Virus genome (UHGV): UHGV-1461890
DNA length: 41,432 nt
DNA from: a virus
Reading direction: 5' to 3' (one strand)
Every line of letters begins with the position of its first letter. The stretch's first letter is position 1. Below the pieces are notes generated by a model that made no database searches, was not told the origin of the DNA, and saw only the letters and a program-made list of their open reading frames with translations. Below, piece by piece: positions 3,321 through 3,397 of the stretch. The translations under genes were made by a program, and so were the position numbers.

Positions 3321-3397
3321 ATGCAGGTAGGGGGGGTTTAGGATTTCATAACCTGTGTATTAAAATATGCGTATAGCAAAGAAGGAAGGAGTTTTCT

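Follow-up and report, generated by a model that had tools for sequence, protein, structure and literature searches.

A conserved homopolymeric G box as the probable upstream element of activator-dependent late promoters in a temperate phage, most likely of gut Clostridia

Introduction

Late promoters without a -35 element are activated in P2/P4-like phages by the zinc-finger proteins Ogr (72 aa, with four cysteines) and Delta, and in Mu by C and Mor. The MotA-box middle promoters of T4 work by sigma appropriation, and activation of the WhiB7 type takes place next to the -35; the Wbl proteins are small four-cysteine proteins which bind sigma region 4 and the DNA just upstream of the -35. In temperate phages of Firmicutes, the terS promoters are controlled by the Ltr superfamily (RinA, ArpU, LtrA/B/C; PMC3152322, PMC3753634).

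Here we analyze the virus genome UHGV-1461890, of which the whole stretch of 41,432 nucleotides is referred to as the window. An earlier note, made from the sequence alone, had pointed to a 14-nt motif with a run of seven G upstream of two late operons, and had suggested a late-promoter or activator-binding element, an RNA processing signal or a slippage tract. Our comparative analysis indicates, with a probability of about 0.7, that the 14-mer serves two activator-dependent late promoters as their upstream recognition box, where it would replace the -35 and be centred near -40. Such a promoter resembles those of the MotA-box and WhiB7 systems in combining a -10 for the primary sigma factor with an element specific to the phage or factor, which stands in for the -35 or adjoins it, and the analogy is a mechanistic one only: searches gave no homology to MotA, AsiA or Wbl (Pfam, E ≤ 1), and the boxes of those systems are AT-rich and differently placed.

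Results

Genome organization and the two copies of the G7 box

The window looks like the complete, circularly permuted genome of a temperate phage; the element is most likely a prophage, and its host most likely belongs to the gut Clostridia (features in Table 1). The early genes, which also include YqaJ/RecT, SSB and a C5 methylase, cross the right end of the window and resume at 1-3289; the intrinsic terminator that ends them has a predicted RNA fold of -17.5 kcal/mol (z = -3.0), which 0 of 200 shuffles equalled in stability. The late genes form one long rightward block (3398 to 31893) in the order terS, TerL, P22-type portal, Prp, capsid, giant gene, BppU-like fibre and amidase, and this block holds both G7 boxes. 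The giant gene is 11 kb long and takes up 27% of the 41-kb genome, and the ADP-ribosyltransferase domain of polyvalent proteins (ART-PolyVal, residues 2188-2354) is the sole Pfam domain recognized in its product. The major capsid gene lies directly 5′ of a terminator-like hairpin, GGGGGAGGGATAACTCCCTTCCCC, with a T-rich tail (9958-9981), a position that is the usual place for an attenuator boosting capsid mRNA. The C5 cytosine DNA methylase gene (39486-40199) of the early region has the only C6 run of the window (39837-42). No tRNA is present in the window.

Table 1. Genes and signals of the window that frame the two G7 boxes.
Feature	Position	Strand	Description
Candidate late activator gene	2663-2899	+	78-aa four-cysteine protein; second-to-last gene of early operon; role predicted
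DUF1064 / Holliday-junction-resolvase-like gene	2906-3289	+	Last gene of early operon; Pfam PF06356 7e-20, PHROG 190
Intrinsic terminator	3289-3320	+	Ends early operon; 13-bp stem, GAAA loop, U6 tail
G7 box, copy 1	3328-3341	+	G-run 3330-3336; predicted at about -45 to -32 of the terS late promoter
Putative -10 hexamer TAAAAT, site 1	3361-3366	+	24 nt 3′ of G-run; 31 nt before terS GTG
terS RBS GGAAGGAG	3384-3391	+	
terS	3398-4021	+	First late gene; GTG start; PHROG 1206 terminase small subunit, HTH_psq
Giant late gene	15917-27265	+	3782 aa; stop 27263-27265; ART-PolyVal domain (Pfam)
Terminator-like hairpin, site 2	27271-27304	+	15 bp, AGAC loop, weak U-tail AUGUUAAUAUUUU; -23 kcal/mol, z = -4.9
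G7 box, copy 2	27274-27287	+	G-run 27276-27282
Putative extended -10 TGtTAATAT, site 2	27304-27312	+	Hexamer 27307-27312; 24 nt after G-run, 25 nt before fibre ATG
Fibre gene RBS GGAGGG	27325-27330	+	
BppU-like tail fibre gene	27338-29203	+	ATG 27338 likely; Pfam BppU_N 3e-15, PHROG tail fibre
Serine integrase	32111-33607	-	
cI-like repressor	35204-35626	-	
cro-like gene	35791		

The 14-mer, TAGGGGGGGTTTAG, was recovered exactly at the two places that the earlier note had named, both on the + strand, and a count over the whole window with up to two mismatches allowed returned these 2 matches only. The chance expectation is 0.15, 2 matches were seen in 0 of 100 dinucleotide-preserving shuffles, and the two boxes contain the only runs of at least six G on the + strand of the window. 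Their description as lying upstream of two late operons was accurate: the first copy stands before terS, 57 nt 5′ of the GTG and just 3′ of the early-operon terminator, and the second lies between the giant gene and the fibre gene, starting 9 nt after the stop codon of the former and about 50 nt before the likely ATG of the latter. At both sites, as at all 22 sites compiled below, a -10 close to TATAAT is found at a workable distance 5′ of an RBS and the start codon of a late gene. The window has these two sites only, both of them in the late block, as expected of late promoters, which would be confined to the early/late boundary and the front of late gene blocks. The -35 position at site 1 reads TTAGGA (3 of 6 matches to TTGACA), and an upstream element at a fixed distance accompanies this weak -35. 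Site 2 is less clear in this respect, having a fair -35 (TAGACA, 16-nt spacer, plus TG), and it might therefore work without an activator. The promoters of the cI/cro early region are canonical (TTGACA-17/18-TAAAAT/TAAGAT), in contrast to the late sites, which lack a good -35.

Folded as RNA, site 1 shows no structure beyond that of shuffled sequences (z = -0.7) and its G-run enters no hairpin, and Rfam at the gathering score gave 0 matches over the whole window; an RNA element was rejected on these grounds, and the suggestion of an RNA processing signal finds no support, also because a transcript from the predicted promoter would exclude the box. The stem-loop noticed at the second copy is real, with the G-run as the 5′ arm of the 15-bp hairpin given in Table 1, and a homologous hairpin is present in L085 (related loci are numbered with the prefix L), the one relative that is homologous there. 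It is an added, terminator-like feature of internal sites and not a property of the motif.

Two further sequence details lie close to these features. An 18-nt inverted repeat with 72% complementarity (3308-3325 / 3368-3385) brackets the site 1 promoter, pairing the 3′ arm and U-tract of the terminator with the 5′ UTR just before the RBS. A weak look-alike of the module (2204-2238: G5, 24 nt, TATCGT), probably due to chance, lies inside ORF 2137-2343, 5′ of the gene for the four-cysteine protein.

Recurrence of the box in related phages

Relatives were gathered as TerL homologues from IMG/VR (51 loci) and GTDB genomes (25 loci), together with contigs encoding homologues of the four-cysteine protein. 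The MAGs in which TerL relatives lie belong to Acutalibacteraceae, Ruminococcus, Oscillospiraceae and other Clostridia and stem from the guts of humans and ruminants. The motif does have counterparts in related phages: we compiled 22 sites with the module, which come from about 19 different phages and prophages of gut Clostridia, some of them sharing only about 50% TerL identity and one having 55% GC. Its order is the stop codon of the last early gene, a terminator hairpin with a U-tract, 5-12 nt, (T)A-G6-8, 23-25 nt, TAnnnT, an RBS and terS.

The distance from the run to the -10 is 23-25 nt at 22 of the 22 compiled sites. For the G-run sites that come from TerL relatives, a TAnnnT hexamer (at least 4 of 6 matches to TATAAT) stands 23-25 nt after the run in 17 of 17, and the other 58 offsets of all 17 sites together hold only 13 such hexamers. 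The remaining five sites were obtained by motif search and fit the same register, with the -10 included in the search pattern for four of them and only L001 independent. With regard to position, 12 of the 42 coding-strand runs of at least six G in 49 non-redundant loci fall within the 350 nt 5′ of terS, which make up 3.8% of the sequence (binomial p = 4e-8, uncorrected for kinship); the tests of -10 distance and of position both leave phylogeny aside, and the spacers are unalignable among about ten lineages. In three loci found by protein homology and not by motif (L082, L083, L092), GGGGGGGTTTAGGA followed by 24 nt and TAAAAT or TACAAT has been kept, and the 17-nt spacer has diverged while the box and the distance stay. 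As a control, 28 other, unrelated GGGGGGGTTTAGGA matches in IMG/VR were inspected, and 0 of these had a -10 at 23-25 nt or a four-cysteine neighbour. The comparison strongly supports a late-promoter or activator-binding element, as had been proposed for the motif, through the fixed distance to the -10 and the enrichment upstream of terS, and the box also recurs beside the same small regulator-like gene in unrelated-looking phages.

The boxes of more distant phages are related in sequence without being identical, namely TTTA-G7-AT in L039 and L042 (L063 and L093 are similar), G6TGGG in L045 and L225, and G6TTAGAAATA in L098; shorter boxes, such as GGGGTGG, GTGGGGTAGAA and GGGTTAGAAAT, are distributed among L031, L033, L037, L087, L091, L053, L062 and L094. 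A second, internal box that agrees with the first one of the same genome was seen in four cases: G7TTTAG occurs twice in the window, as does GGGGGGTTAGAAATA in L098 and G6-7TGT(T/A)ATTGCCC in L055. L085 has a box copy at the place homologous to site 2 of the window, with G6, the hairpin and TGtTACTAT, and in L055, L056 and L098 the internal copies follow the portal/Prp genes, in front of the scaffold/capsid genes. The second copies thus resemble the first copy of their own genome in the bases flanking the run, which is the pattern expected from a shared trans-acting reader.

Searches of GenBank phages by blastn with both flanking regions gave distant terminase or collagen-repeat matches only and no annotated relative, and IMG/VR searches with the terS protein and the fibre N-terminus gave no relatives. 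A literature search for late promoters with a G-tract, or for a motif before the terminase genes, returned nothing relevant.

A four-cysteine protein as candidate activator

The four-cysteine protein encoded near the end of the early operon belongs to a family of proteins of about 75 aa with the spacing C-X12-C-X26-C-X6-C, in which C12, C25, C52 and C59 are conserved without exception in sets of 18 and 43 homologues. The family counts 3274 cluster representatives at E ≤ 1e-3; it gave no Pfam match even at E ≤ 1, no PHROG family and no PDB relative by sequence or fold, and tblastn with three members against 50,697 phage records gave no match in GenBank phages. The AF2 model (pLDDT 78) has three strands followed by two helices, and a match of this model to a known fold was not found. 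Members linked to G-runs are mildly basic (pI 8.2-9.1). An HMM search of about 80 related loci detected the gene in 47, in every case on the strand of TerL/terS and within about 1 kb 5′ of terS.

A run of at least six G 5′ of terS is present in 11 of 31 non-redundant loci with the four-cysteine gene vs. 0 of 18 without it (Fisher p = 0.003, phylogenetically uncorrected). Scans with the motif only led to sites directly 3′ of a four-cysteine gene and 5′ of terS in 2 of 30 matches in IMG/VR (L001 and L024, among which are a GC content of 55% and an unrelated TerL) and in 4 of 80 matches in metagenomes (L149, L153, L209 and L218), six in all. The exact box type tracks the four-cysteine/early module, which is at least 65% identical in L082, L083 and L092 with TerL only 52-55% identical; it does not track TerL, since L031, L033, L087, L091 and L098 have 86-92% TerL identity and yet carry other G-rich boxes. 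Shared ancestry together with physical linkage (the box lies 50-450 bp from the gene) could explain this co-inheritance.

Several loci depart from the association. L063 has a perfect TTTA-G7 box 5′ of terS and no four-cysteine gene in the 1.5 kb upstream, where other CxxC zinc-ribbon ORFs are encoded (433-687 and 956-1162, in the slot before terS), and L033, L034, L087, L091 and L037 have degenerate G-rich boxes with the four-cysteine gene missing from the sampled flank. Conversely, 20 of the 31 loci with the four-cysteine gene have no run of at least six G, and in L221 terS begins 27 nt 3′ of the terminator, which leaves no room for a promoter. In the distant sub-families (L221-L224 and L226) the region upstream of terS is ambiguous or free of G-runs, and what we propose is accordingly not meant for the family as a whole.

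With these points in mind, we put forward the 78-aa protein as the best, though tentative, candidate for the activator, with the odds somewhat against it. The broader proposal, under which the G7 box would be bound by a very large and hitherto unrecognized family of four-cysteine (zinc or iron-sulfur) proteins acting as late-gene master activators in P22-portal-type temperate phages of gut Clostridia, is more doubtful still. If true, the four-cysteine proteins would add a sixth class to the known late regulators, with no structural relationship to the five Ltr families, and would read a homopolymeric G tract near -40.

Further observations were made at individual loci. In L221, the 13-mer GGGGGTGTTGTAT recurs as the RBS context of two late genes (8200-8275, 13101-13113), and late expression in this phage may rely on read-through. 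A G7 or G8 run lies directly 5′ of the four-cysteine gene itself in L041 (1260), 3 nt before TATAAT, and in L105 (3961), where it is SD-like; both could be due to chance or to autoregulation. The slot before terS holds a sigma70_r4-like ORF in L036 (about 3100-3330) and an HTH-like ORF in L087 (about 4200-4440), and the variety of small putative DNA-binding genes in this slot suggests mosaic swapping of late regulators.

Alternative explanations of the G-run

Another reader of the box, a plain terminator, a packaging site and a phase-variable tract were weighed as alternatives, each of which we consider much less likely than an upstream box of late promoters. In the first of these, the box would belong to late promoters and be read by something other than the four-cysteine protein, whether a factor or sigma supplied by the Oscillospirales host or a different protein of the phage, for instance the HTH_39 protein (38313-38702). 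The loci named above in which G-rich boxes of the same spacing occur with no four-cysteine gene detectable in the flank (L063, L033/L034, L087, L091, L037) would fit such a reader, as would the other DNA-binding ORFs before terS in L036 and L087 and the further HTH proteins encoded in the window. We nevertheless regard it as unlikely: the -10 hexamers look like those read by a primary sigma, the ORFs scanned in the window include no sigma-like or Ltr-like gene, and the six motif-only matches adjoin four-cysteine genes, with no other neighbour that recurred. A prophage, moreover, needs its late promoters to be silent in the lysogen, which argues for a factor made by the phage.

It is slightly less likely again that the G-run is merely the G+C-rich arm of intrinsic terminators or of hairpins stabilizing mRNA 3′ ends, the identity of the two 14-mers being incidental. 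The run does pair with a downstream C-run at site 2 of the window, in L085, at both sites of L055 and in L056 (-15 to -23 kcal/mol, z from -1.8 to -4.9), with a U-tract after the hairpin in L055 and L056. The complementary C-run is missing, however, at site 1 and in L039, L042, L045, L063, L082, L083, L092, L093, L095, L098, L001, L149, L153, L209, L218 and L225, sites which lie 3′ of a separate, complete terminator, and a hairpin arm would explain neither the lack of structure at site 1 nor the uniform distance of 23-25 nt from the -10. Hairpin formation is better regarded as an additional function that the run serves at internal sites.

Packaging sites are common in terS or just 5′ of it, and some Gram-positive phages have G-rich cohesive-end regions. 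By location and composition the motif could thus be a pac or cos element for the small terminase, but we hold this to be very improbable: a second identical copy lies 24 kb away before the fibre gene, the copies in L055, L056 and L098 stand before scaffold/capsid genes, a strict distance to the -10 is meaningless for packaging, and the Terminase_6N/P22-portal type fits headful packaging. Least probable of all is a phase-variable slippage tract whose length would switch late-gene expression, as the earlier note had also raised, for the homopolymer does differ among relatives (G6, G7, G8, G6AG7) but lies 5′ of the -35 position, where a change in length leaves the -35/-10 spacing unaltered, and the distance between the 3′ edge of the run and the -10 does not vary with run length.

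Two known modes of late control were also tried and rejected. Recognition of the sigma-H or SPO1 gp34 type (-35 CGTTAGA) does not fit in spacing or in the -10. For antitermination of the lambda Q type, no terminator is found between the predicted promoters and the first late gene, and the terminator that is present lies 5′ of the box.

Discussion

Judged by its sequence and its relatives, the G7 box is best classed as a real, conserved regulatory element, part of what would be a phage late promoter of the activator type with an unusual homopolymeric G box. We infer that transcription starts at these sites and needs an activator. The host RNA polymerase with its primary sigma factor would use the good -10 located 24 nt 3′ of the G-run, and the G7(TTTAG) box near -40 would take the place of the poor or absent -35 as the binding site of an activator encoded by the phage in its early operon, in a class-II-like geometry. 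The first copy would fire the operon from terS to the tail genes right after the early-operon terminator. The second copy would re-initiate transcription behind the giant gene, serving the fibre and lysis genes, and its G-run may at the same time pair with the downstream C-run and so form, in the transcript arriving from upstream, a hairpin like that of a terminator. At internal sites, then, the G-run would have taken on a further role as the 5′ arm of a hairpin that terminates or stabilizes, so that one cassette may both end the upstream transcript and restart transcription.

For all but a few of the temperate phages that infect the dominant gut Clostridia (Oscillospirales, Ruminococcus, Acutalibacteraceae), we know of no account of late-gene control. 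The signature of a terminator, a G6-8 box, 24 nt and a -10 would let annotators mark late operons and internal restarts in thousands of uncultured phage genomes. It also nominates an abundant four-cysteine protein of unknown function as a candidate master switch of lysis and packaging, and such a switch governs the output of prophage induction and transduction, as RinA does in staphylococci. If the link to this activator fails, the locus would still be a well-supported example of an ordinary phage promoter architecture.

In comparison with the activators of Proteobacterial phages, the predicted system resembles Ogr/Delta and Mu C/Mor in that small phage proteins serve several late promoters with a good -10, a poor -35 and an upstream element at a fixed distance. 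It is unlike Ogr/Delta and Mu C, which belong to phages infecting Proteobacteria, in that their elements are dyads (TGT-N12-ACA at about -55; that of Mu C centred at -43.5) and not a homopolymer. The cysteines of Ogr/Delta are moreover spaced CX2C...CX4C, against C-X12-C-X26-C-X6-C in the candidate, and a similarity in sequence or fold was not detected.

The Ltr systems come closer in layout. As in those, a terminator separates the regulator region from a tightly regulated terS promoter, activation would go through a short phage-specific DNA element, and regulator and target travel as a mosaic module (PMC3152322, PMC3753634). The four-cysteine gene fills the slot that RinA/Ltr activators hold in other Firmicute phages. 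The Ltr proteins, however, are basic, of about 130 aa, with a C-terminal domain like sigma region 4, whereas the four-cysteine candidate has 78 aa and no Pfam match, and none of the ORFs scanned in the window matched an Ltr-type regulator (Pfam RinA/ArpU/Sigma70_r4/DUF1492). The sites differ as well: an Ltr site is made up of 7-nt direct repeats, two to four in number, which lie immediately 3′ of the ltr gene and 5′ of the terminator, whereas here a single G6-8 box lies 3′ of the terminator at about -40, with extra copies inside the late region, and a search of 2880-3420 for Ltr-type direct repeats gave one weak pair only, inside the DUF1064 gene. The layout thus works like that of the RinA/Ltr terS promoters, but two features that define those, a regulator of the Ltr family and 7-nt direct repeats, were not found here.
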